From Acidimicrobiaceae bacterium (lineage in GTDB: Bacteria; Actinomycetota; Acidimicrobiia; Acidimicrobiales; Aldehydirespiratoraceae): a stretch of 64,000 nt of DNA. The notes beneath the pieces are model-generated. The model saw nothing but the letters and a program-made list of their open reading frames with translations. It had not been told where the DNA came from and did not search any database. The stretch lies in contig VYBO01000138.1 of NCBI GenBank assembly GCA_009844405.1, positions 1,514-65,513 of the forward strand. Direction: 5' to 3'. The position numbers and the translations under genes were made by a program. Positions 2,044 to 60,471 of the stretch are shown in pieces. How positions within the stretch are numbered: the stretch's first letter is position 1; every line of letters starts with the position of its first letter.

Positions 2044-3129
2044 ATGGCAGATACCAATCGCACTGAGGTGCCGACGGCATGGCTCACCAGGGCCGGCAGA
2101 CATGGTGAGCGCGAGGATTTCGTTCTTGAACACGGCCTTGCGGGCACCGGCTGGGCCGACCTTCCTGATCTGTCGGGGATCTCCAGCCGTGGAGAGATGA
2201 AGGACATGATTCGCCGGCTGCTCCCTGGCAGGAGCAAGATGAGCGTGGCCAACTACTCAGGCCAACTGTGGGCGCTGCGAGCACATGTGAGCATCGGCGA
2301 CCTGGTCGTGCTGCCTCGCAAGAAGACACGTCAGATTGCAATCGGCGTGGTGACCCGGGAGTACTGGTACCGGGACGATCCGGACCCGGGCAGGCGTCAC
2401 GTGGCATCGGTGGACTGGAAGCGCACCGACGTGCCCTGGGAGGCCGCCCACGAGGATCTCCGGAACTCACTGAGTTCGCTGCGAACCATTTGCGCGGTCA
2501 AGTGTGACGACGGGGCACAACGCCTCCGCGATCTGATGACGACGGGCCGAGATCCGGGTACACCGAATCGTCCTGGGGCCATGACACCGAACGATCGCAT
2601 GACGCCGTCGGAGCTTCACGCTGAGTTCCTGGCTGCGCTCAGCGACCTGGTTGTCGAGTCTTCAGACCTTGGGGTCAAGCCGCTGGAACTCAAGATGGAG
2701 GGTTCACTCCCCTTGCGGGCTCGCGTGTACATGTACAACGCGACCCGTCCTCCTGGAGGCCGTCCTGCTGGCGAGTACAAGATCCAGCTCATCGTGCCGA
2801 ATCACGAGCGAGGACGGCGAGGCAACTTCGATCTCGCGGACGGCCGGATTGTGCTCCTCGTGGGCTACGCAGCTGACGACGCCGTGTTTGTCCTCTGGGA
2901 CGCCGGTGCCTACCGAGACTTTGCCTATTCCCGGAACTTACAGGTCAAGTCCGAGACGATCCTGGCCGCCTTCGCCCGCGGGATCGGCCTGCAAGAGCGG
3001 AGGCTGCGACCGGGGGGAGGGATGATGGTGCGCGAGACAGTCGTGGCAGCGACCGGAGAACATCTCGCAGAAGCGATCGCCCTGCGAGTCGATCTGTCCC
3101 GCAAGCGTCTCCTGGGCGAACTGAACTGA
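2044..3129 (+). CDS. two-domain protein: Mrr-type N-terminal sensor domain (COG4127-like) plus uncharacterised domain X shared with the 7816-8802 product
   Basis: N-terminus WLTRAGRHGEREDFVLEHGLAGTGWADLPDLSG...GQLWALRAHVSIGDLVVLPRK.TRQIAIGVV..EYWY matches the pattern I recall at N-termini of Mrr-cat restriction proteins. The C-terminal 150 aa (RVYMYNATRPPGGRP.GEYKIQL...VLLVGYA.DDAVFVLWDA...DFAYSRNLQV) is paralogous to the 7816-8802 product. No catalytic motif seen. ATG at 2044 chosen; 2020 is also possible. Confidence 0.65.
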   Translation: MADTNRTEVPTAWLTRAGRHGEREDFVLEHGLAGTGWADLPDLSGISSRGEMKDMIRRLLPGRSKMSVANYSGQLWALRAHVSIGDLVVLPRKKTRQIAIGVVTREYWYRDDPDPGRRHVASVDWKRTDVPWEAAHEDLRNSLSSLRTICAVKCDDGAQRLRDLMTTGRDPGTPNRPGAMTPNDRMTPSELHAEFLAALSDLVVESSDLGVKPLELKMEGSLPLRARVYMYNATRPPGGRPAGEYKIQLIVPNHERGRRGNFDLADGRIVLLVGYAADDAVFVLWDAGAYRDFAYSRNLQVKSETILAAFARGIGLQERRLRPGGGMMVRETVVAATGEHLAEAIALRVDLSRKRLLGELN

Positions 3130-3130
3130 G

Positions 3131-5254
3131 ATGAGCAGCCTGCGCGATGTCATGTTGAAGCTCTCGTACCACAAGGGCGAGGACGACATCGCAGCCGACT
3201 TCTACCTGCCGTGCATGCGTCGCTCCCACCGCTACGACCGAGCGGTCGGGTTCTTCAGCAGCAGCGTGTTTGTGCTCGCGTGGCCAAGTCTGCGGGAATT
3301 CGCCGCTTCCGGCGGTCGGATGAGGCTCGTCTGTTCGCCTGCTCTTTCGAGTGACGACATCGACGCGTTGAACGTCGGCTACAGCCCCTCTGGAGCCGAG
3401 CAGTTCTCGACTGACGCTCGCGAGGAACTGCAGCGACTCCTAGCCTCGCCCGTACTTCAGAAGCCGACGAAGGTTCTCGCGAGCCTCGTCGCTGGTGGCG
3501 TAATCGATCTCCGCATTGCCTGGATTGAGCCGCAGACCGCGGGTCGTAGCCGAAGGATCTTCCACGACAAGGTCGGGATCTTCTCCGATGTCGACGAACA
3601 GCAGGTGGTGTTCAAAGGATCCATGAACGAGACCTGGCTCGGACTCTCAGCCGACGGCAACCTTGAGTCGATCGATGTCTTCGCGTCCTGGCGGAACGAG
3701 GAGAACGAGCGACGCGTGGCCGATGAAGTCGAGTACTTCGACAACCTCTGGCACGATCAGCAGCCGGGTGTCACCGTGACGCCGTTCCCAGAAGTTGTCC
3801 AGCAAGAGCTGCTTGAAATCGCCGACGAGTTGCACTGGGAGGACCATGTCGACGAGATCTGTCAGGAAATGGAGACGGACGCCGGTGTCACCGCAGATCA
3901 CAGGCTGGGCACCCGGACTCCCCGCCCACACCAAGTTGCAGCACTCGATGCCTGGGAACAGCGGGGCCGGCGAGGCATCCTCGAACACGCCACGGGCAGC
4001 GGCAAGACCTTCACGGCGCTGTGCGCGATCCATGAGAGCCTGGCACTCGGCGAGGTCCCGCTCGTGCTCGTTCCGAGTGAACTTCTACTCGCCCAGTGGC
4101 AGGACGAACTCACTACAACATTCGAATCTCAGGGGCTCCAGCTGCTGGTGTGTGGTGGGGGGCACCGAGCCTGGGAGGACCAGCGACGGCTCTCGCTTTG
4201 GACTCGCGACGACAGTCTGGCCGAGCCTCGGGCGGTGCTTTCGACCATACAGACCGCAAGTTCAGAGGAGTTCAGGCGGCTCCTTCGCGACGGATCTCAT
4301 CTCTTCGTTGTCGCCGACGAGGTGCACCGAACCGGAAGCCCGACGCACCGCCAAGTGCTGCACTTCTCTTCAGGTCCACGAATGGGGCTCAGCGCGACTC
4401 CCAGGCGGGCAGGCGACCCGGTCGGAACTGCCGCGCTCATGGACTACTTCGACGGGATCGTGCCGCCTCCATTCACACTCCAAGATGCGATCGCGGCAGG
4501 CAGTCTGACGCCCTATTCGTACCGTCCCCACCGGGTGTCGCTTGACGCCGACGAACAGGACGAGTGGGACCGACTCACCGCCGAGATCGGAAGGCATCTC
4601 GCGATCCGTGGCGAGGAGGAGCCGGCCCCAATCGATGACGCGATCCGGCGTCTACTCATTCAGCGTGCGCGCGTCGCCAAGAAGGCCGCCGCGAAGAGCC
4701 CTCTCGCGGCGGAGGTCGTGTCACGGTACTTCGAGCAGGGGCAGCGCTGGCTTGTCTATTGCGAGGACCGAGAACAGCTTCGATCCGTCCGGGGCGCTAT
4801 CGGAGCGATGGGGGTACGGGAGGTCTACGAGTACCACTCCGCGATGGAAGGCGATCCGGAGTCGACGCTCCGCGTCTTCGAGCAATCTGGCGGAGTAGTG
4901 ATCGCCATTCGCTGCCTCGATGAGGGTGTGGACATCCCGGCCACGACCCACGCCCTCATCCTGGCGTCCTCGCGCAACCCGAGAGAGTTCATCCAACGGC
5001 GTGGCCGCGTTCTTCGCACCGCACCCGGGAAGTCGATTGCGCACATCCACGACGCCATCGTCCTCCCTTCAGGCCTCGGCCAAGACGTGCCAGTAGGTTC
5101 GATGGTGAAGGGTGAACTGGCTCGAGCGATCGAGTTCGGCCAGCACGCCGTCAACCCGGATGGGGTAGTCGAACTGAAGACGATCGCGGTTGACTACGGT
5201 CTCGACTGGAAGGCTCTAGTAGAAGAAGGATTCGAGATTGACGAAGACGAATGA
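3131..5254 (+). CDS. PLD-family (HKD) nuclease domain fused to SF2 DEAD/DEAH-type helicase
   Basis: HKD motif IFHDKVGIFSD...FKGSMNET. Helicase motif I ATGSGKT, motif II ADEVH, motif III LSATP, motif VI QRRGRVLR. ATG lies 1 nt after the upstream stop. Confidence 0.85.
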   Translation: MSSLRDVMLKLSYHKGEDDIAADFYLPCMRRSHRYDRAVGFFSSSVFVLAWPSLREFAASGGRMRLVCSPALSSDDIDALNVGYSPSGAEQFSTDAREELQRLLASPVLQKPTKVLASLVAGGVIDLRIAWIEPQTAGRSRRIFHDKVGIFSDVDEQQVVFKGSMNETWLGLSADGNLESIDVFASWRNEENERRVADEVEYFDNLWHDQQPGVTVTPFPEVVQQELLEIADELHWEDHVDEICQEMETDAGVTADHRLGTRTPRPHQVAALDAWEQRGRRGILEHATGSGKTFTALCAIHESLALGEVPLVLVPSELLLAQWQDELTTTFESQGLQLLVCGGGHRAWEDQRRLSLWTRDDSLAEPRAVLSTIQTASSEEFRRLLRDGSHLFVVADEVHRTGSPTHRQVLHFSSGPRMGLSATPRRAGDPVGTAALMDYFDGIVPPPFTLQDAIAAGSLTPYSYRPHRVSLDADEQDEWDRLTAEIGRHLAIRGEEEPAPIDDAIRRLLIQRARVAKKAAAKSPLAAEVVSRYFEQGQRWLVYCEDREQLRSVRGAIGAMGVREVYEYHSAMEGDPESTLRVFEQSGGVVIAIRCLDEGVDIPATTHALILASSRNPREFIQRRGRVLRTAPGKSIAHIHDAIVLPSGLGQDVPVGSMVKGELARAIEFGQHAVNPDGVVELKTIAVDYGLDWKALVEEGFEIDEDE

Positions 5255-5438
5255 GCAGTTCGAGTCGCTGCTGGAGACCCTCCTGTCAGTTCGCGGCTCC
5301 CTGCACCAAGACATACCGGAATCCCTTCTTCGCGAGATCGTCTCCGCCCACGTGGAGGAACCCGACAACACGAGGATCCATCAACGAGTTCAGCAAGCGA
5401 TCGAGAACAGAATGGGCGAGGCCGATGCTTCGGATTGA
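5238..5438 (+). CDS. small acidic hypothetical protein (66 aa)
   Basis: TTG start overlaps the helicase 3' end by 17 nt, and the ORF overlaps the ATPase start by 14 nt. The alternative frame (the track 5251 ORF N-terminus) looks non-coding. Helical, acidic composition. Confidence 0.45.
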   Translation: MTKTNEQFESLLETLLSVRGSLHQDIPESLLREIVSAHVEEPDNTRIHQRVQQAIENRMGEADASD

Positions 5439-7386
5439 TCGAGTCGAACTCGAAGACTTCGGACCCTTCAAGGGCCGCCAAGCGATCAACTTGCCCGAGG
5501 CGCCAGGCGTGGCCGTGGTCTACGGCGAGAACATGCGGGGCAAGACCGTCCTGCTCAACGCGATTCGCTTCGCGCTCTTCGGCAAGGTGCTCGGTCGAGC
5601 CCGTCGCGAGGGCTCGCTCCATACCATCGGCAACTGGGAGCAGGCCGCCGCGGGCCAGTACGGATTCGAGGTGGTCCTGCAGTTTCAGGACGAAGGAAGC
5701 CAGTACAGACTCACGCGATCCTGTCGGCCGCGCTCGGGAGTCGTGCCTGAGCAGCACAGCGACTACGACGTCAAACATTTCCTTCAGCGCGACGGGGAGG
5801 TGCTCGGCCCTGGTCAGGCCATCGCTGAGATCGAGCGAATCATGCCGGAGAAGATCGCTCGGTTCTTCCTGTTCGACGGAGAACTCCTGCAGGAGTACGA
5901 GGATCTCCTGCGCAACGAGAGCGACATGGGACGCCAGATCAGCGAATCGATCGAACAAATCCTCGGAGTTCCAGTGCTCACGCGTTCACGGGCGACGCTT
6001 GCCAAGCTGCTCGACGACTATGGAAAGAAGGAGGCAAAGAGCGCTCAGGCCAACACGATCACGAGCGAACTCGGAACCCAGATGAACGTCCTGCTCGACC
6101 AACGCCAAGTTCTTCAGGACGGACTTGACGACATGGAGGTGAGCCTCGCTCAGTTGCGTGAGGACAAGGCAGACCTGGACGAGCAGCTCCGCCGCAACGA
6201 GCGCCTCACAGCGATGATGGACAAGCGCGACATGCTCCTTGACGCCATCGAGTCGCTCGATGAACAGATCGAGGCTCGTCAAGCCGAAATCGCCATCGAA
6301 ATGCGAGTGGCGTGGAAGTCACTCGTCGCCGCTCGTGCATCTGACCTAACCGGAGGCCTGCGAGATCGAGAACGACGCTTACAGCTCCAGAAGATGCGAC
6401 ACGAAGTCCTACGGGCTTCGGCTGATCGAGGCGTAGGCCCCGACAAGTGCCCGACATGCTTCCAAGTGCTCAGCGACGAAGTGCTCGCGCAGATGGAGGA
6501 GGCTGCTGCCGGCGAAGCGGCCAAGATCGAAGATATCGAGCGACAGTTGCGCGACATCCAGCGACGCCTGGACGCCCTGGAGGACGCTGCCCGAGTTTCA
6601 AGTGAGACCGGTCTACGGATGCTCTGGAGCGACCTTGACCGCCTCAAGAGAGACCGGTACACCAATGAAGACGAAGCTTCAGAACTCGATCGTCGGCTGC
6701 AGGAAGCAGGGGACGACCAAGGCGCCGTTCGTCAAGCGCAGTACGAACAGGAGCAGACCGTCAAGAAGATCGCCCTGCTGGAGGAGGGGATTGGAGAACA
6801 AGAGGACGCGCTCGCCGAGAACGAGCGCGATCTGGAGAGAGTCCGAGCACGTCTGGCGTCCAGCGGTGGAGCGGACGTCGAAGGTGCCCGGCAACGGCGG
6901 CGTTTGTGCGCCGAATTGCATGGGTTGTTTGACCAAGCAGTCGCCAGGTACCGCGACCGACTCCGTCGAAGCGTTGAAGCCGACGCCACCGAACTCTTCT
7001 TGCAGCTCACGACCGAGCCAGAGTACGCGGGATTGCGGATCAACGAGAGTTACGGGCTCACAATCCTCCACCAGGACGGTTCCGAGATACCGGTGCGCTC
7101 CGCTGGCGCAGAGCACGTCGTAGCCCTGTCCCTCGTAGGCGCTTTGCAGAAGAACGCCCCCCTGCGAGGCCCGATCTTCATCGACTCACCATTCGGACGG
7201 CTCGACACCCAGCACACTAGGAATGTCATCTCCGCCCTGCCCAGCATGACGGAGCAGGTGTGCCTCCTCGTGTACGAGGAGGAGCTGCGACCGCAGCTTG
7301 CTCGGGAGCTGCTTAGGGGACAGCTACATGCCGAGTACTCCCTACGTCGGGTTTCCGCCCGTCACACTGAACTCGAAGAGAGATAG
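5425..7386 (+). CDS. DndD-like SMC/ABC ATPase (AAA_23 type) with coiled coil and CxxC hook
   Basis: N-terminus MLRIDRVELEDFGPFKG...VVYGENMRGKTVLLNAIRFALFG (Walker A). Long coiled coil with CPTCFQ. C-terminal IFIDSPFGRLD Walker B/D-loop, as in DndD and Rad50-like proteins. Confidence 0.8.
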   Translation: MLRIDRVELEDFGPFKGRQAINLPEAPGVAVVYGENMRGKTVLLNAIRFALFGKVLGRARREGSLHTIGNWEQAAAGQYGFEVVLQFQDEGSQYRLTRSCRPRSGVVPEQHSDYDVKHFLQRDGEVLGPGQAIAEIERIMPEKIARFFLFDGELLQEYEDLLRNESDMGRQISESIEQILGVPVLTRSRATLAKLLDDYGKKEAKSAQANTITSELGTQMNVLLDQRQVLQDGLDDMEVSLAQLREDKADLDEQLRRNERLTAMMDKRDMLLDAIESLDEQIEARQAEIAIEMRVAWKSLVAARASDLTGGLRDRERRLQLQKMRHEVLRASADRGVGPDKCPTCFQVLSDEVLAQMEEAAAGEAAKIEDIERQLRDIQRRLDALEDAARVSSETGLRMLWSDLDRLKRDRYTNEDEASELDRRLQEAGDDQGAVRQAQYEQEQTVKKIALLEEGIGEQEDALAENERDLERVRARLASSGGADVEGARQRRRLCAELHGLFDQAVARYRDRLRRSVEADATELFLQLTTEPEYAGLRINESYGLTILHQDGSEIPVRSAGAEHVVALSLVGALQKNAPLRGPIFIDSPFGRLDTQHTRNVISALPSMTEQVCLLVYEEELRPQLARELLRGQLHAEYSLRRVSARHTELEER

Positions 7387-7394
7387 GGGGCGTC

Positions 7395-7781
7395 ATGGCT
7401 GAAGACAAACGAACGATCGGGGTGACCGAGGCCGCAGACGGTGTTCTCGCCGTGATGGTCGAGCAAGGGCATTTCTCCGACGCCATCGACGCTGCCAAGT
7501 TCGCGATGGCCCTCGCGATCAACTCGCGGGGGCACGCGGAGGACCTCACGGTCGAGGGCACCACCACGAAGTGGAACGTCGGCAGCTTCGATCCGGACAG
7601 CCAACTCCGCTCACTCCTCGACGCCCTCTATCCGGATGTCGATCAGCCGTACCGGCTGCTTGAGTTCTTGATCGATGACGGGCTCCATCGTGTAAGCGAA
7701 CACATGGAGTCGGTAGGCGAGCTCGATGTCATCGCGTTGCTCGACGAGGCCGGGACCCGTCCTAGCGCAGCTGCGCCGTAG
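7395..7781 (+). CDS. small protein, possibly DndE-like
   Basis: 128 aa, 8 nt downstream of the ATPase. The N-terminal pattern RTIGVTEAADGVL...DAAKFAMALAINS recalls the DndE N-terminus (R.h.s......L..l......n...R.A...SL). Assignment is tentative. Confidence 0.4.
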   Translation: MAEDKRTIGVTEAADGVLAVMVEQGHFSDAIDAAKFAMALAINSRGHAEDLTVEGTTTKWNVGSFDPDSQLRSLLDALYPDVDQPYRLLEFLIDDGLHRVSEHMESVGELDVIALLDEAGTRPSAAAP

Positions 7782-7815
7782 AGGCCCGAAACCAGAGGTA
7801 CAGCGGTTCCACGTA

Positions 7816-8802
7816 TCAGACGCAGGTGTCGAGCAGTTCGTCGAACACGTCCGGCCAAGACAAGGCAACGCCATGAGACTCGCAGAGGTCGGGCCAGTAG
7901 GCCGACGATGGCTCCCGCTCGACGGCCAGCACGGGGTTGTTCTCGAACCCCCAGTCGACGAGATGTGCGTAGCTGAGCACCTGCCCGAGACCCAGCCGTA
8001 GCTGCCGTTCCTCGTTGGTGGGGGTGAGGCTCTTCACCTCTGCGATCCATGCAGCGTCGGCCGCAATCCACCCAACATCGACTAGAGGGTCCGAATCGCT
8101 CGGCGACAGCGGCTGCCATCCGCGCGCTCGGACAGCATCAGCAAGCTGGTTCTGGACCTTCCTGTGCGCGTTCGTTCCTCGATCGATCGCATCCGGATCG
8201 AATCTGAACACGCGCGACGTGGGAGTCGCCGAGCCGCCGGACGAAGGGCGCACATAAGGCTGTCCCTGCGTTGCCGGGACGCCCTTGCCGCGAGATTCTG
8301 CTTCCCCGCTTGAAGCACGCTCCTCGATGGCCTCGACCACCAGCTGACTCGGGGCGCAGATTACGACCTCCATCCCGGTCTTCAATCGACGGTCCTGGCG
8401 CACACGCACACCCGAGGCGGCCGCAGCCTCAACATTGGCCGTTCGGACCTGGAGATTCGTCGAGTAAGCGAAGTCGATGCGCAATGCAGCGTCCCAGAAG
8501 ACGAAGACGTCATGTTCAACGGCGTAGCCGCAGACCAGCACCAGGTCGACCCCTGACCAGTCGAACTCGCCCCGTTCGCCGCGGCGCTGACCGGTGAGTT
8601 GGATCTTGTGCTCCGGGGTCGGTCGGCCGCCAGGAGGGTCCGTCGCGTTGTAGATGTAGACCCGAACACGACTGGGCAGAGGGGGACGGAGTTCCACAAC
8701 GAGTTCGCCGGAGTCATCCGTCCTCGCCGCGATGAGTGCGGTGGGACCAACGGCGGCAACGAATCGGTCGTGAAGCTCCGTAGTCGAGAGCCGATCAGTC
8801 AC
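7816..8802 (-). CDS. domain X plus C-terminal PD-(D/E)xK-type nuclease
   Basis: The N-terminal 150 aa aligns with the 2044-3129 C-terminus at roughly 45% identity by eye. The C-terminus has DPLVDVGW...AAWIAEVKS...QLRLGLGQVLSY, a D...E-x-K restriction-endonuclease-like motif. Confidence 0.7.
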   Translation of the reverse strand: MTDRLSTTELHDRFVAAVGPTALIAARTDDSGELVVELRPPLPSRVRVYIYNATDPPGGRPTPEHKIQLTGQRRGERGEFDWSGVDLVLVCGYAVEHDVFVFWDAALRIDFAYSTNLQVRTANVEAAAASGVRVRQDRRLKTGMEVVICAPSQLVVEAIEERASSGEAESRGKGVPATQGQPYVRPSSGGSATPTSRVFRFDPDAIDRGTNAHRKVQNQLADAVRARGWQPLSPSDSDPLVDVGWIAADAAWIAEVKSLTPTNEERQLRLGLGQVLSYAHLVDWGFENNPVLAVEREPSSAYWPDLCESHGVALSWPDVFDELLDTCV

Positions 8803-8829
8803 GTCACCTTCCTGCGCCCCGCTGGTGGT

Positions 8830-10596
8830 CTACGCGTAGTACGCGCTGCCCACTCGTTCGAACCGATTGTTGCAGAGCTGCTCGAACGCCCGGAGCGAGA
8901 GTCCAACCGGTTTGGCACCACCGCCGATCACTGCGCTCACGGCGACCGAGTAGAGGTAGTCGAGCTGGCGCTGCGGTGAGGTGCTGCGCTCAAGACTCTC
9001 AAGGTGCGCCGTCACGGCATCGACGGCTATGTCGCCCGCCCCGTTGAGCCGCGGGGTGCCTTTCTTTGCGACGTCGAATGTCATGACGAGGTCGTAGAAC
9101 GGCACAAGCTCTCCTCGCCTGACCTTGTAGCCCTTCTGACTGCGCTGACCCTTGTCAAGGATCGACACCTCCGCCTGGCGAAGGCCAGCATCCTCTACCG
9201 CGTCAAGGAGCGCACTCCACACGGCGTCGTCCGAGTTGTGGAACACGACAGAGACGCGCCCGTCCTTGACGACGACACGCTTCGCCTCTCGGAAGGAGTC
9301 GGTGAGCAGCCGCTGATAGTCGCCGACCGTCTTGCCTCCGTCTTCGACGCGACGCGACTTGTTGACGACGATCTCCTGGTCGTTGTCGGTCGGATCTCCC
9401 AGCCACGCCTCCCAGACGATGTTGCAATCCGCGTAGTGGATGTTGTTGCCGAAAGGTGGATCGGTGAACACGTAGTCGACCGAGTTGTCAGCGAGCCAAC
9501 GCAAGTCAGTCGCGGACGCCTGGTTCACGTCGACTTCACCGTCCGGGAGCACGTCGTAGAGCCGGCATACCTGGCGCACCTGGTGACGGAAGACCTCGAA
9601 CACGTTGGGCTCCGAGATCAGCTGCGGGATAAAGAGAGTGCCGGTCAGCGGACGCTGGCCTCCCTTCGCGTTGTAGCGTCGCATCCGGCTGGCGTGCCAC
9701 GCCGTGTTCGTAAAGGCGAACTGCAGCGCCTCCCGAACGGCCACATCGTCTACTTGGCCAATTCGATGCCACAGCCGCGAGAGCGCTATGGCTGGGCGGC
9801 GAGCGAACATGTCGGCGACCGTCTGCACCCCACGAAGATGAAGCGCCGACCTGATGTACATCTCACGGGACGAGTCGATCGGCGCTGTCGGCATCCAGCG
9901 AGTGACCCGCCGACGTCCGATCTTGTCGATCCGGTTGAGCGCTTCGACGGTGGGATCGCCATGGACGAGCTTTCCGCCTGATACAGGGGCAAGCGTGATC
10001 CACCGAGGCACGGATGCGATCGGGACGCCGCCTCTCCGGTCGAACCACCATCTACAGCCATCACAGCGAATGTCACGAGGCAGTGGCCGGTCGGGCTCAG
10101 TCGCATCCCATAGAACAATCTCCGACGCGCACATCGGGCACTCGTAGACCTCCGACCAGACGGTATGGCGCGCTAGCCCCTGGACAACCCCGTCATCGGT
10201 GTCGACTGACGACCAGTACAGGTCGCGTTCTGTCCGCCGCATCCAAGAGCGGTCGAGCTCAGCGACAGCGTCGGACAGCTGCTCGGGGGACACACGTCGT
10301 GTGTGGTTGCGGGCGAGGTGCACAGCGCCGGGCGACAGGTCCGAGAGCGCCGCTCGGCGGCCTGCGAGCACAGCCGCAACTCCTGTCATGCCGGATCCGC
10401 AGAACGGATCGGCGACCAGACCGCCTGGCGCGGTCGACGCCTCAATGAAGGGTTCGATCGCCTCGGGCGGAACCTTGGTGGGATAGGTGTGCGACGTGTA
10501 CCAAGGCCCACCCTTGGAGCCCGTCACACTTGGGGGCAACGGCCGATGAGCAGCCAACGACGGCAGGCCTACTTGCTGTTGGCGGGCAGATTCCAT
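8830..10596 (-). CDS. amino (N6-A/N4-C) DNA methyltransferase with central Zn-ribbon region, paralog 1
   Basis: H.Y.TKVP...DPFCGSGMTGVAA (motif X/I) at the N-terminus, CPMC...CDGC insert, DYVFTDPPFG (motif IV) in the C-terminal half. Confidence 0.85.
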   Translation of the reverse strand: MESARQQQVGLPSLAAHRPLPPSVTGSKGGPWYTSHTYPTKVPPEAIEPFIEASTAPGGLVADPFCGSGMTGVAAVLAGRRAALSDLSPGAVHLARNHTRRVSPEQLSDAVAELDRSWMRRTERDLYWSSVDTDDGVVQGLARHTVWSEVYECPMCASEIVLWDATEPDRPLPRDIRCDGCRWWFDRRGGVPIASVPRWITLAPVSGGKLVHGDPTVEALNRIDKIGRRRVTRWMPTAPIDSSREMYIRSALHLRGVQTVADMFARRPAIALSRLWHRIGQVDDVAVREALQFAFTNTAWHASRMRRYNAKGGQRPLTGTLFIPQLISEPNVFEVFRHQVRQVCRLYDVLPDGEVDVNQASATDLRWLADNSVDYVFTDPPFGNNIHYADCNIVWEAWLGDPTDNDQEIVVNKSRRVEDGGKTVGDYQRLLTDSFREAKRVVVKDGRVSVVFHNSDDAVWSALLDAVEDAGLRQAEVSILDKGQRSQKGYKVRRGELVPFYDLVMTFDVAKKGTPRLNGAGDIAVDAVTAHLESLERSTSPQRQLDYLYSVAVSAVIGGGAKPVGLSLRAFEQLCNNRFERVGSAYYA

Positions 10597-12377
10597 GCGT
10601 TTCCCTTCCTCTCAAGAATCTCGCTGCACAGAGACTCGACGGCGGCGAAGCTCCAGCCGGCAGGCGATGCACCCTCGGCGAGTAGGTAACGCATCACTTG
10701 CGAGTGCAACCACGGCGTAGTCCGACGCGATGCAGGCTGGTGCGCGACGTACTCCCTTAGTTCCTTCTCGATCTCGGATCGGTCCACTTCGCGGCGCTGG
10801 ACATTGGGACCGGGCTGGGTTCCAGCAGCGAGGTGCATCACGAGGTCGAAGTTCGCGACCTTCTCACCCTTGTCCTCATGTCGGAGTCCCTTGAACGACG
10901 CCTGCCCCTTGTCCATCACGACGGCAGCTTCTACGCGCAGCCCCGCCGAATCGACAGCGTTCTGAATGGACGACCAGACCGCATCATCTGAGTTGTGGAA
11001 CTGCAGCGAGGCCCAAGCACCCGGCCGTATCACACGACTTATCTCCCCCATCGCCCGGCTCATCGCCTTCTCATAATCGTCGAGCGTCGTTCGGCCCAAC
11101 TCGGCCGTCAAGCGCCTGTTGACCACAGTCTCAGCAGCAACGTCGGTCTGCTCGCCCAGCCACGCCTCCCACAGGAAGGACGAGTCGCTGTAGTAGATGT
11201 TCGAGCCGAATGGCGGATCGGTGAACACGTAATCGACGCTGCCATCCGCTGCCCACGCGAGCTGCTCGGCCGATCCGAGGTAAACCTCACACGAGCCCGG
11301 CGCGTCCCAGGTCTGCCGGTACATGTCGGTGATGGTCGCAAGCTTGCGGCGGAAGAGGCTGAACACGTTGAACTCGTAGTTCAGCGATGCCAGATACATG
11401 GTGGACGACAAGACGTTGGTCGGCCGCCTCGGATGCCACTGGTAGCGACGAGAGGCGCGGTTGACACTTGCGGTGAACACGAAGCGAAGGCCGGCGCGAA
11501 GTGAAGGTTCCTCAACCTGCCCGATCGCATTCCAGAGTGCCGACAGTGCGTGCAGGTTGCGAGCCGTGAAGAAGTCTGCCGAGGTGACAATGCCTTGAAC
11601 CTCGTGCTGGGCTCGCCACATCTCGCGCCATGACTCCCAGGGAACGCTCGGGTACCAGTGCAGGATGTCAACCCGTTCGACTCGGTCCCCCTGTCCCGTC
11701 GCCTCGACCGGCCTCACGAGTCGAGCCGCTTGACCGTCCAGGCTGATGTTCTCTTGCACCGGCTGGGAACGCAGCCAGTGGAGGTCCGTCTTCCTGAAGG
11801 GTCCGTGGCCCTCAGAGCACGACAGCGCCTTAAGGACAGATCCGTCTTCATGGTCTACTGCCGCGTCCCAGAACAAGATCTCGCGCTCGCATCGCGAACA
11901 CCGGTAGAGGTCAGACCAGACCGTGTATTCGATCCGTCCCCCGGGCACGCCATACAGATCCAGCTCCAGTGGCCCAAATCCGGCAAGTAGCTCGGAGGCA
12001 ACCTGCTTGAAGCGATCGGGATCGACACGCGCGGTGTACCCGCGCGCGATGTGAACCGCGGCCGGCGACAGATCGGACAGCACTGCATGCCGACCAGTCA
12101 GCACCGCGGCGACGCCAGTCTGACCAGACCCGCAGAACGGGTCAAGCACCACATCGCCAGGATCGGTGTAGTGCTCGATCAGCTGCTTTAGGCCCTCCAC
12201 CGGCACCTTCGTGTGGTACGAGTGCGCCCGGTAGAAGACGCTCCCCTTGCCGCCCGCGATGTCCACCGTCATGGGCTCACGAGGCCGCTCTTCGTCGCGC
12301 GCTGAGTCTCCGAGGCGAGGATCAACCATGAGCTGCCGTCCTCGTTCCGTAGGAGCAGGCGGCAGACATCTCGCCAA
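10569..12377 (-). CDS. amino (N6-A/N4-C) DNA methyltransferase, paralog 2
   Basis: HSYHTKVP...DPFCGSGQTGVAA, CSRCE...C..GH insert, DYVFTDPPFG. Overlaps the downstream paralog by 28 nt. Start is uncertain (12377, 12329 or 12272). Confidence 0.85.
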   Translation of the reverse strand: MARCLPPAPTERGRQLMVDPRLGDSARDEERPREPMTVDIAGGKGSVFYRAHSYHTKVPVEGLKQLIEHYTDPGDVVLDPFCGSGQTGVAAVLTGRHAVLSDLSPAAVHIARGYTARVDPDRFKQVASELLAGFGPLELDLYGVPGGRIEYTVWSDLYRCSRCEREILFWDAAVDHEDGSVLKALSCSEGHGPFRKTDLHWLRSQPVQENISLDGQAARLVRPVEATGQGDRVERVDILHWYPSVPWESWREMWRAQHEVQGIVTSADFFTARNLHALSALWNAIGQVEEPSLRAGLRFVFTASVNRASRRYQWHPRRPTNVLSSTMYLASLNYEFNVFSLFRRKLATITDMYRQTWDAPGSCEVYLGSAEQLAWAADGSVDYVFTDPPFGSNIYYSDSSFLWEAWLGEQTDVAAETVVNRRLTAELGRTTLDDYEKAMSRAMGEISRVIRPGAWASLQFHNSDDAVWSSIQNAVDSAGLRVEAAVVMDKGQASFKGLRHEDKGEKVANFDLVMHLAAGTQPGPNVQRREVDRSEIEKELREYVAHQPASRRTTPWLHSQVMRYLLAEGASPAGWSFAAVESLCSEILERKGNAWNLPANSK

Positions 12378-15326: not shown

Positions 15327-17357
15327 GTGCGCGGAGCGCGAGCGGTTGGAGGGCCGGTGACTTCCATCGAGAGGCTTGGCATCAACGTCATCAAGGCGCT
15401 GGCCATGGACGCGCCCCACGCGGCCCGTTCGGGCCACCAGGGCACCGCCATGGCCCTGGCCCCGCTCGCCCACGTGCTGTGGACCCGGATCCTGCGCTAC
15501 GACGCCCATCGGCCGGACTGGCCCGACCGGGACCGGTTCGTGCTCTCAGCCGGTCACGCCTCGATCCTGCAGTACGCCATGCTCTACCTGACCGGCCACG
15601 GCTTGACTCTCGAGGATCTGAGGAGCTTCCGGCAGTGGGGGTCGCCCACGCCGGGCCACCCCGAGGTCGGCTGCACCCCGGGGGTGGAGGTGACCACCGG
15701 CCCGCTCGGTCAGGGCATCGCCAACGCGGCGGGCATGGCCATCGCCGAGAGCCAGATGCGAGCCCGCTACGGCGCCGACGTCTGCGACCACCGCATCTTC
15801 GTGATCGCCGGCGACGGCGACCTGTCCGAGGGTGTCAGCCACGAGGCAGCCTCGCTGGCGGGACACCTGGGCCTGGGCCGGCTGGTCGTGGTCTACGACG
15901 ACAACGAGGTCACCATCGACGGCGGCACCGACCTGGCCCTCTCCGACGACGCCGCGGCCCGCTTCCGCGCCTACGGCTGGCATGTCGTCGAACTCGGCGG
16001 GGCGGCCGAGGACCTCGACGGGTTGGAAGCCGGGCTGCGCGACGCGGCCGCCGTCGAGGACCGCCCGTCGTTGGTGATCCTGCATTCTGTGATCGCCCAT
16101 CCCGCGCCCCAGGCGTCGGGAACGCCGGCGGCGCACGGCTACGCCATCTTCGACGAGGAGATCGCGGCCGCCAAGGACTTGATGGGACTGCCCGCCGCGG
16201 CGACGTTCCATGTGCCCTCCGAGGTGCTCGACTACTACCGCCGCGCCGGCACCGCCGGCCAGGACGAGCGCTTCGCATGGGAGGCCCGCACCGCCGCCTT
16301 CGACGGCGACCGCGACGGCCTGGAGGCGTGCCTGGCCGCGACCGGCCGTGCCGGCTGGACCGACATGCTGCCGTCATTTGAGCCGGGCCGGTCGGTCGCC
16401 ACCCGCAAGGCGTCCAGCGCCACCCTTCAGGCCCTCCTGCCGGTGGTGCCCGGGCTCACGGGAGGCGGCGCCGACCTGACCGGCAACACCGGCACCGCCA
16501 TCGCCGACGCCGGGGTGTTCTCGGCCGGCGGGCCGGGAGGCCGACAGATCTACTTCGGCGTGCGCGAGCACGCCATGGGGGCCGTCGCCAACGGCATGGC
16601 CCTGCACGGCGGCGCCATACCGGTGGTGGGCACGTTCCTGGTGTTCGCCGATTACATGCGGCCCGCGGTGCGGCTCGCCGCGCTGTCGGAAGCCAAGGTC
16701 GTCTTCGTGTGGAGCCACGACTCGGTGGGCGTGGGAGAGGACGGCCCCACCCACCAGCCGATCGAGCACCTCGCCTCGCTGCGAGCCATCCCGAACCTGC
16801 GGGTGATCAGGCCCGCGGACGCCACCGAGACGGTGGGGGCCTGGAGGATTGCGGTGGAGTCCGAGGGGCCGACCGCGTTGATCCTCACCCGCCAGGACGT
16901 ACCCGTGCTCGAGGGGACCCGGGCCGACGCGGTCTCGTCGGGCGGCTACGCGCTGCTGGAGCCCGCAGAGCCCAGCCTGACGCTGGTGGGGACGGGCAGC
17001 GAGGTGGCGGTGTGCTGCGACGCGGCCGCGCTCCTGGCCGCCGAAGGAGTCGCAGCCCGCGTGGTGTCGCTGCCGTCATGGGAGCTGTTCGCCGACCAGC
17101 CCTACCCCGAGCAGGCCCGGGTGCTCCGGCCCGACCTCCCGTCGTTGGCGGTGGAGGCGGGCAGCACCATGGGTTGGAGCCGCTGGACCGACGAGGCGGT
17201 GGGCATCGACCGCTTCGGTGCCTCCGCGCCCGGCGCGGTGGTGATGGAGCAACTCGGGATCTCCCCCTCCAACGTGGCCTGCAGGGCCCGGGCGCTGCTG
17301 GCCGGCACGCGAACAGAGGCCGAGCGGGTAGTCGAGAGTCAATATGCGGCCTCGTAA
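15327..17357 (+). CDS. tkt: transketolase
   Basis: SGHQGTAMALAP, GHPE, GPLGQG and GDGDLSEGVSHEA motifs, full length. Confidence 0.95.
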   Translation: MRGARAVGGPVTSIERLGINVIKALAMDAPHAARSGHQGTAMALAPLAHVLWTRILRYDAHRPDWPDRDRFVLSAGHASILQYAMLYLTGHGLTLEDLRSFRQWGSPTPGHPEVGCTPGVEVTTGPLGQGIANAAGMAIAESQMRARYGADVCDHRIFVIAGDGDLSEGVSHEAASLAGHLGLGRLVVVYDDNEVTIDGGTDLALSDDAAARFRAYGWHVVELGGAAEDLDGLEAGLRDAAAVEDRPSLVILHSVIAHPAPQASGTPAAHGYAIFDEEIAAAKDLMGLPAAATFHVPSEVLDYYRRAGTAGQDERFAWEARTAAFDGDRDGLEACLAATGRAGWTDMLPSFEPGRSVATRKASSATLQALLPVVPGLTGGGADLTGNTGTAIADAGVFSAGGPGGRQIYFGVREHAMGAVANGMALHGGAIPVVGTFLVFADYMRPAVRLAALSEAKVVFVWSHDSVGVGEDGPTHQPIEHLASLRAIPNLRVIRPADATETVGAWRIAVESEGPTALILTRQDVPVLEGTRADAVSSGGYALLEPAEPSLTLVGTGSEVAVCCDAAALLAAEGVAARVVSLPSWELFADQPYPEQARVLRPDLPSLAVEAGSTMGWSRWTDEAVGIDRFGASAPGAVVMEQLGISPSNVACRARALLAGTRTEAERVVESQYAAS

Positions 17358-17360
17358 GGC

Positions 17361-17411
17361 GCCCAGCGAGGCCGAGGCCCGAGCGGCCCGTGAACGCAGC
17401 GAACAAGAGCG
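17361..17411 (-). repeat. truncated copy (R5) of the dispersed 96-nt intergenic repeat, inverted relative to R1-R4
   Basis: CGAGGCCGAGGCCCGAGCGGCCCGTGAACGCAGCGAACAAGAGCG is the reverse complement of the left half of R1-R4. Lies just after the tkt stop. Confidence 0.7.
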
Positions 17412-17455
17412 GAAAGCACGGGCTGTCCTGTGATGCAGGGGAGGACCACTCCGAG

Positions 17456-18574
17456 ATGACTGCGACCACCAGACTGCACGAGCTCTACGACCGTTGCGGC
17501 CAGAGTCCCTGGCTGGACAACATCCGCAGGGGCTGGATCACCGGCGGGGACCTCCAGAGATGGGTCCGGCAGGGTGTCCGGGGCCTGACGTCGAACCCGT
17601 CGATATTCCAGAAGGCCATCACCGCCACCGCCGACTACGACGACGAGTTCCGGTCCTCCATCGATGCCGGGCTCGACGTCGAGTCGTCCTACTGGCGCCT
17701 GGTCACCTCCGACATATCGGCTGCGGCTGCGGTGCTGCGAGGGGTCTACGACGAGTCCGACGGACTCGACGGCTATGTGTCGGTAGAGGTCGCGCCCGAC
17801 CTCGCCCGGAACGGCGAAGCCACCGCCGAAGCCGCCCGGAACCTGCACGATCAGCTCGCGCTGCCCAACCTCTACGTCAAGATCCCAGGAACGGCGGAGG
17901 GTCTCGCGCCCATCGCCCAGATGATCGCAGAGGGCAACAGCATCAATGTCACGTTGATCTTCAGCGTCGAGCGCTACCTCGAAGTGGCCGACGCGTACAT
18001 GTCCGGGCTCGAGCGAAGATCCGGGGACCTGTCGAGAGTGTCCAGCGTGGCGTCGTTCTTCGTGTCGAGGATCGACACCGAGGTGGACCGGCGCCTCGAG
18101 GCCATCGGCACCGGCGAGGCTCTGCAGTTGCGGGGCAAGGCGGCCGTCGCCAACGCAAAGGTCGCCTACTCCCACTTCCAGAGGCTCTGCTCCGGGCCGC
18201 GCTGGCAGGCGCTGGCCGCCCGGGGGGCCCGGCCCCAGCGCCTGCTGTGGGCGAGCACCTCGACCAAGAACCCGGCCTACCGGGACACGCTCTACGTCGA
18301 CGAGCTGATCGGCCCCGGCACGGTGAACACCCTTCCCGACGCCACGCTGGAGGCCTTCGAGCACCACGGCACCGTCGAGCCCACGCTCGCGTCGGGAACC
18401 GGCGAGGCCGTCGAGTTGCTCGACCGGATCGCAGCGGCAGGCGTCGATCTCGAAGCCGTCACCGCCCAACTCGAGGACGAGGGGGTCGCCGCTTTCGCCA
18501 AGAGCTTCGACGAGCTTCTCGGGGTGCTGGGTGACAAGGCCGACGACCTCCACGCCGCGTCCCGCCCCTCCTAG
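17456..18574 (+). CDS. tal: transaldolase (actinobacterial long type)
   Basis: [16 protein letters not shown]...[13 protein letters not shown]...YVKIPGT motifs. Confidence 0.9.
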
Positions 18575-51028: not shown

Positions 51029-51113
51029 CGCGGACGTGGCGGAATCTGGCAGACGCGCTGGGTTTAGGTCCCAGTACCCACCAGGGTGTGGGGGTTCGAA
51101 TCCCCCCGTCCGC
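51029..51113 (+). tRNA. tRNA-Leu (anticodon UAG), long variable arm, CCA not encoded
   Basis: Acceptor GCGGACG/CGTCCGC, anticodon stem CTGGG/CCCAG with loop TTTAGGT, T-arm GGGGG-TTCGAAT-CCCCC. Confidence 0.9.
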
Positions 51114-51142
51114 ACCCACCACCCACGAAGGGAGACAACCAA

Positions 51143-60074: not shown

Positions 60075-60471
60075 GGGGCTGACCGGTTTCGACGTCGGGA
60101 CCAGGAGGCCGCGGAGTGCGACCGGAGTTGCTCAGACTCCTTAAACGGGGCAACCAAAGAGACGCCGAAGACGACGCTCTCGTTCTCGTCGCCTGATCAG
60201 ATCTGATCTAGCATTTGAGAATCATCGCGACCAGCAATGGCACGCGGGGCCGGACCGCTGCAGCCTGGCACCAGAAGCAGGGGTGGACGACGGGGAGAGA
60301 CCCGCTGACAGCCGGCAAAGACCGCTGACACCGGAGAAAGATCCGGCGGCCGGATCCTCGGATCCGCACGACCCGGCGTAGCGGCAGCCGCAAGCCGCAG
60401 ACTCGGGAATGGTCGTAGCGAGCCCGGCATCCGCCTGACGGACGGGAGTTCGATTCTCCCCAGCTCCACCA
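60075..60471 (+). ncRNA. ssrA: tmRNA (SsrA)
   Basis: 5' GGGGCUGACCGGUUUCGAC. 3' T-arm GGGAGTTCGATTCTCCC plus CAGCTCC-ACCA, forming an acceptor stem with a G3-U pair. Internal tag frame GGC AAC CAA AGA GAC GCC GAA GAC GAC GCT CTC GTT CTC GTC GCC TGA (60149-60196). Follows smpB. Confidence 0.9.

Follow-up and report, generated by a model that had tools for sequence, protein, structure and literature searches.

We analysed a stretch of 64,000 nucleotides from an Acidimicrobiaceae bacterium (contig VYBO01000138.1; hereafter, the window) that carries a defence locus at approximately 2.0–12.4 kb, in which two proteins share one domain, MTaX1 (Pfam PF20296, "Methylase-associated X1"). We propose that this locus is a methylation-based defence island in which two separable restriction arms share one pair of DNA methylases and in which MTaX1 is the link of each arm to methylation; we put the probability of this reading at roughly 0.7. 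The first arm, on the minus strand, would be formed by methylase A, methylase B and an MTaX1-PD-(D/E)xK nuclease, i.e., a triad resembling a restriction-modification system. The second arm, on the plus strand, would be a PbeABCD operon headed by a protein composed of a PF28530 domain and MTaX1. The identity of the shared domain, the order of the genes, the separability of the arms and the swapping of partner domains were all observed directly in the comparisons described below.

An earlier, sequence-only reading of this DNA had reported an uncharacterised domain of about 150 amino acids (aa) in the products of two open reading frames (ORFs). It had interpreted the two products, a sensor protein and a nuclease, as a split Mrr-like enzyme and had named a common docking or recognition module as the fallback. 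Both ORFs were present as described, and the peptides quoted from them were found in the translations. BLASTP aligned residues 183–348 of the 361-aa product (nt 2590–3087) with residues 2–162 of the 328-aa product (minus strand, nt 8317–8799) at 44% identity and 59% positives over 170 columns (E = 7e-37). The alignment is therefore significant when computed, far beyond chance, and the claim that both proteins have a domain in common was borne out. Each protein also matched the Pfam MTaX1 model, for which the gathering cut-off is 25 bits: the 2044–3129 product at residues 226–345 (E 4e-22, 79.3 bits) and the 7816–8802 product at residues 45–154 (E 5.6e-19, 69.2 bits). The BLASTP alignment, together with the independent matches to one Pfam model, indicates that the similarity of the two copies is real and reflects homology. 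The conserved domain spans approximately 170–180 aa compared with the 111 positions of the Pfam model, in agreement with the size estimated earlier. Copy 1 was 54–60% identical to the MTaX1 proteins that head Pbe operons in Proteobacteria. MTaX1 was reportedly defined by Krishnan et al. 2020. The domain is thus already catalogued; it is a Pfam family that has been discussed for exactly such loci (PMC10853773). The features of the island and the evidence for each are as follows.

2044..3129, plus strand: operon-head protein of 361 aa, PF28530 + MTaX1 (Pfam, PADLOC, precomputed architecture PF28530+PF20296)
2044..2568, plus strand: PF28530 domain ("Mrr-type sensor"), N-terminal 175 aa of the head protein (precomputed annotation of the database)
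2590..3126, plus strand: MTaX1 copy 1, operon-head type (BLASTP against copy 2, E 7e-37)
3131..5254, plus strand: PbeA, HKD (PLD-type) nuclease and SF2 helicase (PADLOC PbeA E 7e-208; Pfam ResIII, DEAD, Helicase_C)
5238..5438, plus strand: PbeB-like small protein of 66 aa (lies between PbeA and PbeC; position kept in related loci)
5428..7386, plus strand: PbeC, DndD-like ABC ATPase with a coiled coil and a CPTC zinc hook (PADLOC PbeC E 5e-219)
7395..7781, plus strand: PbeD-position protein of 128 aa, presumed DndE cognate (position; kept in all intact Pbe loci surveyed)
7816..8802, minus strand: MTaX1-PD-(D/E)xK nuclease of 328 aa (co-oriented with both methylases and directly downstream of them)
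7816..8217, minus strand: PD-(D/E)xK nuclease domain (conserved motif residues; Foldseek)
8308..8802, minus strand: MTaX1 copy 2, effector-fused type (BLASTP, Pfam, conservation among homologs)
8830..10596, minus strand: DNA methyltransferase B, N6_N4_Mtase family (Pfam E 2e-18; PADLOC MTase_II PDLC03312 E 3e-140)
10569..12377, minus strand: DNA methyltransferase A, paralog of B (Pfam N6_N4_Mtase E 4e-16; PADLOC PDLC03312 E 6e-138)

The question of whether the two MTaX1 proteins need each other was addressed in a survey of 53 genome loci encoding MTaX1 and of the loci around selected homologs, onto which all component families were mapped (loci are numbered with the prefix L, and database proteins with P). 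Complete loci like that of the window were found in five further Acidimicrobiia genomes. Both MTaX1 proteins occurred together in the window, in its five closest complete relatives and in 20 of the 32 informative Pbe loci. In 12 of the 32, only the head MTaX1 was found, solo or fused to a helix-turn-helix (HTH) domain, and there was no MTaX1-effector. L011, a 92%-identical relative, is among these 12; the slot of the nuclease is filled there by a 466-aa DUF4357 protein (16251–17651, minus strand; Pfam E 3e-20), i.e., the effector is swapped out within an otherwise kept locus. L011 also encodes a separate Mrr_cat protein (8144–9184) just upstream of the head gene. The triad of methylase, methylase and MTaX1-PD-(D/E)xK nuclease stood alone, with no Pbe gene and no second MTaX1, in 10 loci (e.g., L001, L003 and L007), and five more loci held an intact triad with only decayed Pbe fragments. 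In total, the triad was conserved in more than 20 loci. The triad-only and head-only loci indicate that each MTaX1 protein belongs to its own module and that each of them is able to stand alone. The Pbe arm seems to have been deleted repeatedly while the triad was retained.

Remnants of the Pbe arm, consisting of PbeD with a truncated PbeC or PbeA, were located in Acidimicrobiia (L048 12810–13106; L049 11021–11197; L051 11025–11967; L052 5089–6124; L054 11025–14037), and in one database protein (P0159) PF28530 is fused in frame to a PbeD tail. In L001 (1–5820), two proteins are encoded upstream of the triad: one of more than 1,500 aa that faintly matches sacsin-like SACS, and one of 463 aa that weakly matches Mrr_cat (E 0.0026). 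They may constitute another associated arm.

The partners of MTaX1 changed from lineage to lineage. In Burkholderiales and others (e.g., Burkholderia gladioli), MTaX1-HNH was followed by HTH_17-MTaX1-PbeABCD and then by a fused double methylase. The order in Alphaproteobacteria was fused methylase, HTH_17-MTaX1, PbeABCD and then a protein of about 350 aa with a divergent MTaX1, in place of which one locus had MTaX1-GmrSD_N. This protein of about 350 aa carries MTaX1 at its N-terminus (Pfam E down to 3e-30; L017 15205–16260, L019 15231–16295, L038 15213–16268, and L026, L027, L028, L030 and L031), and its C-terminal domain of about 190 aa, which matched no Pfam family, is presumably an undescribed effector. 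The head MTaX1 was always directly upstream of PbeA, and the effector MTaX1 was always found with the methylases or beside the operon. Head copies were 46–66% identical across phyla, and effector copies were diverse. Within a locus, head and effector copies were 15–41% identical, no different from the mean identities of these classes between loci, indicating that the two copies are not matched locus by locus.

These results bear on the proposal that the sensor protein and the nuclease form a split Mrr-like enzyme through heterodimerisation of MTaX1. Its starting point, that single-chain Mrr-type enzymes have a sensor-type N-terminal domain fused to a catalytic domain, was correct: PF28530 is joined directly to Mrr_cat in relatives of 350–367 aa, and their N-terminal domains are 52–56% identical to that of the head protein. 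The frequent co-occurrence of both MTaX1 proteins, in the window, its closest complete relatives and most informative Pbe loci, also suits a joint enzyme, and restriction-endonuclease-like folds, if MTaX1 has one, often oligomerise. However, the nuclease did not match Pfam Mrr_cat (PF04471) at E <= 0.1, and when it was compared by hhalign with the Mrr_cat domains found in PF28530+Mrr_cat fusions, the probability was 0.3–0.9%. We therefore rejected its assignment as Mrr; the nuclease domain, as modelled, is a generic PD-(D/E)xK fold that cannot be shown to be Mrr. Moreover, each protein was found without the other in many genomes, close relatives included, the sensor gene is apparently coupled to PbeA on the opposite strand from the nuclease, and the two copies show no locus-specific similarity. 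PF28530 itself is one of several N-terminal partners of the head MTaX1; most lineages have HTH_17 or no domain at all in its place. The obligate pairing of the two MTaX1 proteins was contradicted by the 10 triad-only loci and by the 12 of 32 Pbe loci without an MTaX1-effector. We consider a split Mrr-like enzyme highly improbable.

The head protein resembles the PF28530+Mrr_cat proteins (Mrr-type Type IV; PADLOC PDC-S02) in its N-terminal domain, with residues 11–181 matching the N-terminal half of PDC-S02 (E 6e-48). Unlike them, it has MTaX1 instead of Mrr_cat, and the neighbouring nuclease is not Mrr_cat either. Mrr enzymes act alone on modified DNA, whereas the locus in the window comes with methylases of its own and with a Pbe operon. 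The start codon at 2044 is backed by an identical 361-aa database protein (P0121), and the head gene ends, with its stop codon, 1 nt ahead of the start of PbeA; it thus appears to be translationally coupled to PbeA. The PF28530 region gave no match in relaxed scans of a local Pfam copy or in PDB sequences (single-sequence and profile searches), and searching for homologs of this domain by itself yielded fragments for the most part.

The nuclease constitutes a family of its own, with 445 database relatives, and lies downstream of two methylases in genomes that have neither a PF28530 protein nor any Pbe gene. Across 37 homologs with 46–90% identity, E255-V-K257 and Q274xxxY278 of the nuclease domain were invariant, and D242 was nearly so. 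Foldseek matched the AlphaFold2 model of the nuclease (pLDDT 85) to the nuclease domains of Cdn1, Can2 and Card1 and also to NucS, PaqCI, McrC, AF1548 and Hjc. As in restriction-modification systems, the PD-(D/E)xK motif is intact and the nuclease gene is adjacent to and co-oriented with the methylase genes, being separated from methylase B by a 27-nt gap. FokI (Type IIS) and Sau3AI are two-domain restriction endonucleases with a separate targeting domain; in Sau3AI, a catalytic domain is combined with a similar non-catalytic DNA-binding domain. The nuclease of the window is built in a comparable manner, with a putative non-catalytic domain at its N-terminus, a PD-(D/E)xK domain at its C-terminus, and methylase genes adjacent and co-oriented. 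Two methylases are typical for an asymmetric target. Unlike in FokI and Sau3AI, the putative targeting domain is MTaX1, which is without a solved relative. No PADLOC restriction-enzyme model matched the nuclease.

The two methylases are paralogs that share a 96-nt stretch with 78% identity, and their genes overlap by 28 nt. The PADLOC model PDLC03312 describes a fused double methylase, to which B matched at positions 775–1291 and A at positions 184–684; in other organisms, both methylases form one fused protein of 1,300 aa. Both enzymes are 590–600 aa long and permuted, with motif I placed before motif IV and a stretch of roughly 300 aa between the two motifs. Motif IV reads DPPF in both methylases, a form more characteristic of N6-adenine enzymes than of N4-cytosine ones. 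The published description terms this class 'circularly permuted cytosine-N4 methylases' (PMC10853773).

The MTaX1 family is small: among 1.8 billion representatives, it accounts for about 433 clusters at 50% identity. Most of its members are solo proteins of 170–200 aa. Fusions joined MTaX1 to HTH_17, Sigma70_r4, RNA_pol_A_CTD, N6_N4_Mtase (P0318), PD-(D/E)xK, HNH_2, NOV_C, GmrSD_N and AAA_5 (McrB/MoxR-like). On haloarchaeal plasmids, MTaX1-HNH was paired with DUF1156 methylases, and MTaX1-AAA ATPases lay beside methylases, DUF499 and a phosphatase, indicating that MTaX1 also serves a second, unrelated class of methylase-based defence system. In the haloarchaeal loci L063 (Haloglomus plasmid), L064, L065 and L066, these MTaX1 genes lie within clusters that carry the annotations DUF499, DUF1156 methylase and alkaline phosphatase; in Halosegnis, three DUF1156 genes and two HNH genes stand in tandem. 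A methylase was present at or near every MTaX1 locus examined.

In restriction enzymes, DNA-reader modules usually take the form of a variable N-terminal domain to which different nuclease or NTPase effectors can be attached. The swappable nuclease and NTPase effectors behind an N-terminal MTaX1 correspond to this reader-type layout. McrBC and LlaJI-type systems, for instance, join an AAA+ GTPase to an N-terminal DNA-reader domain that varies, and some MTaX1 proteins likewise combine an N-terminal MTaX1 with AAA_5 (McrB/MoxR-like) next to methylases. The window, unlike McrBC and LlaJI, is without an AAA_5 fusion, and this comparison bears only on the kind of module that MTaX1 may be. The separable arms and swapped partners favour the fallback offered by the sequence-only reading, a common docking or recognition module. 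We read MTaX1 most readily as a methylase-linked targeting module common to two independent arms, which would either recognise unmethylated DNA or dock on the methylases.

As a DNA reader of the mark, a role to which we give slightly less than even odds, MTaX1 would operate as follows. Host DNA would be marked by the two methylases, and MTaX1 would bind DNA and tell unmethylated from methylated target sites. The fused PD-(D/E)xK domain, as the cognate endonuclease, would cut unmarked incoming DNA, and the same unmarked DNA would be passed in parallel to the PbeA nuclease-translocase. The PF28530-MTaX1 protein would be the specificity or sensor subunit of PbeABCD, and PF28530, possibly borrowed from Mrr-type enzymes, would give the Pbe arm a second, lineage-specific input. 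In its most specific form, one mark would license two unlike restriction machines via paralogous MTaX1 readers of unmethylated DNA with a degenerate restriction-endonuclease fold, one copy driving the PD-(D/E)xK cutter and the other serving as the specificity subunit of PbeABCD, with PF28530 adding an input from modified DNA. This complete scheme is tentative and, taken as a whole, rather unlikely. If it is true, the Pbe arm would answer both unmarked and foreign-modified DNA, and the modular swapping of readers would explain why the Pbe arm decays while the triad persists.

MTaX1 could also be a protein adaptor that docks effectors onto the methylase pair, with the methylases supplying both sequence recognition and methylation sensing. 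Parallels are Mod, which serves Res in Type III systems, and M2S, which serves R in Type I systems. The constant presence of a methylase agrees with docking, as do the direct N6_N4_Mtase-MTaX1 fusions, and the conservation of the head MTaX1 across phyla would be in keeping with a conserved interface between proteins. The methylases could have recognition domains of their own in the region from motif I to motif IV. However, copies within one locus can be only 15–25% identical, although docking would call for both to bind the same methylase. MTaX1 also lies N-terminal to McrB-like AAA_5 ATPases and to HNH, GmrSD_N and NOV_C nucleases, a position that is normally held by DNA-reader domains. The residues conserved throughout the family (in copy 2, R47, Y49, N52, T54, R60, E64, Q68, G92, F100, D104, F111, S114, Q118, Q136 and E145) are for the most part polar or aromatic, and their appearance is that of a pocket, not of a hydrophobic patch. 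Because a methylase is always nearby, the data accommodate a DNA reader and a docking module alike; on balance, we regard docking as unlikely.

The fold of MTaX1 was assessed with an AlphaFold2 model of the isolated domain of copy 1 (pLDDT 91, pTM 0.89). The best PDB match found by Foldseek was I-Ssp6803I, a PD-(D/E)xK homing endonuclease (probability 0.97, E 0.02, TM 0.38–0.47), and the best annotated viral match was a PD(D/E)XK-domain protein (probability 0.89). According to this model, MTaX1 may be a degenerate restriction-endonuclease fold. A START/Bet v 1-like fold, as in PYR/PYL receptors, was considered for MTaX1 and rejected at a Foldseek probability of 0.1 or lower. Judged from its residues, MTaX1 is probably non-catalytic if it is restriction-endonuclease-like. 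An MTaX1 that is itself catalytic, as a variant nuclease or nickase of the restriction-endonuclease fold or as another DNA-modifying enzyme, would give each protein a second activity. In line with this, the best structural matches are PD-(D/E)xK nucleases, E64 and Q68 are universally conserved, most members have an E-x-K triplet (E64-H-K66) on a beta-strand, and solo MTaX1 proteins exist. However, K66 is not conserved in the family, and the 'PD' position is without a conserved acidic residue. Furthermore, dedicated nucleases are recurrent fusion partners of MTaX1, or else it stands at the head of operons that already encode an HKD nuclease, and profile comparison with nuclease domains was not significant. 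A catalytic MTaX1 is the least probable of the explanations considered here.

Several observations weigh against our proposal that MTaX1 links two independent arms to methylation, and in particular against its role as a reader with a restriction-endonuclease-like fold. The fold matches have TM values below 0.5, profile-profile comparison of MTaX1 with restriction-endonuclease domains (the nuclease domain and Mrr_cat) was not significant, and single-sequence and profile searches of the PDB for both proteins and for MTaX1 returned no solved structure or sequence relative. Since the profile comparisons were not significant, the case for this fold is made by the weak Foldseek matches; the fold of MTaX1, its reading of DNA and its sensitivity to methylation are what we infer. 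The charge of the domain is uninformative for DNA binding, with a pI of approximately 8–9.4 in head copies and approximately 6.2 in nuclease-fused copies. In addition, the presence of both MTaX1 proteins in 20 of the 32 Pbe loci leaves room for optional contact between them, and docking explains the distribution of MTaX1 next to methylases equally well.

The PbeABCD operon of the second arm was identified by the PADLOC matches of PbeA and PbeC. The HKD motif of PbeA is HDKVGIFSD from residue 145, and the CPTC of PbeC lies at residue 341 of 652. PbeC also matched the NCBIfam DndD model at E 1.6e-44, below the cut-off of that model. PbeB of such systems is small and evolves rapidly, and their PbeD is a DndE homolog with two RHH repeats. 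The PbeB-like protein showed a weak match to Pfam Sp-DndD (E 0.12), and the PbeD-position protein had no Pfam or NCBIfam match. PbeABCD was first described in PMC6459918 and, as first defined, depends on phosphorothioation with linked dndCDEA. In CxC ABC ATPase-DndE systems (= PbeABCD), methylases can replace the phosphorothioation genes (PMC10853773). Among the genes called in the 2.0–12.4 kb island, there was no dndCDEA phosphorothioate modification gene, the sole DndD-like match being PbeC, and the methylases stand where the phosphorothioation genes would be, as in the methylase-linked subset of PMC10853773. The locus type, PbeABCD with two permuted N6/N4 methylases and MTaX1 genes, is therefore already published (PMC10853773). 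Like those systems, the window has PbeA, a PbeB-like protein, PbeC, a DndE-position protein, permuted N6_N4-family methylases and an MTaX1 gene. Unlike them, it has two MTaX1 copies, one fused to PF28530 at the operon head and one fused to a nuclease downstream of the methylases, and its nuclease arm also exists alone as a methylase-methylase-nuclease triad.

The two gene blocks of the island converge, the head gene and PbeABCD on the plus strand facing the methylases and the MTaX1-nuclease on the minus strand. The island has a low GC content (62–64% compared with 70–72% in the genome) and sits between housekeeping genes, with TtuA-like PP-loop and ThiS-like proteins upstream and a LON-domain protein downstream. 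A putative PBP4-like ORF also lies downstream. The ends of the island were checked for direct repeats and tRNA genes, and no att-like repeats were found; within the island there was no tRNA gene or integrase, and comparison with PHROGs gave no phage family match. The nearest genome match was an Acidimicrobiales metagenome-assembled genome (MAG), with 98% identity over the MTaX1 domain. Just upstream of the island, a minus-strand ORF (1650–1949, 99 aa) matched Phage_holin_3_6 weakly, below the cut-off (E 5e-4); it overlaps other ORFs in a high-GC stretch and could be spurious. Two RNA genes that have no bearing on the finding, for tmRNA (tag AEDDALVLVA) and for tRNA-Leu, lie elsewhere in the window (60075–60471 and 51030–51116).

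Both the MTaX1 domain (Pfam) and the type of system (PMC10853773; PMC6459918) are already known. Given this, and given the failure of the split-Mrr idea, the finding serves as useful context and comes as no surprise. The layout of two copies with swapped partners, the free-standing triad and the tentative fold were not found in the literature searched, which did not include Krishnan et al. 2020, and we claim no priority for them. What the survey adds is that MTaX1 marks two separable arms, that its partner domains swap freely, and that a compact triad stands alone. This stand-alone methylase-methylase-MTaX1-nuclease triad would be the easiest system to test. MTaX1 is very well conserved and always tied to methylase-based defence; deciding whether it is a reader or a docking module would explain how methylase-linked Pbe systems discriminate self from non-self.

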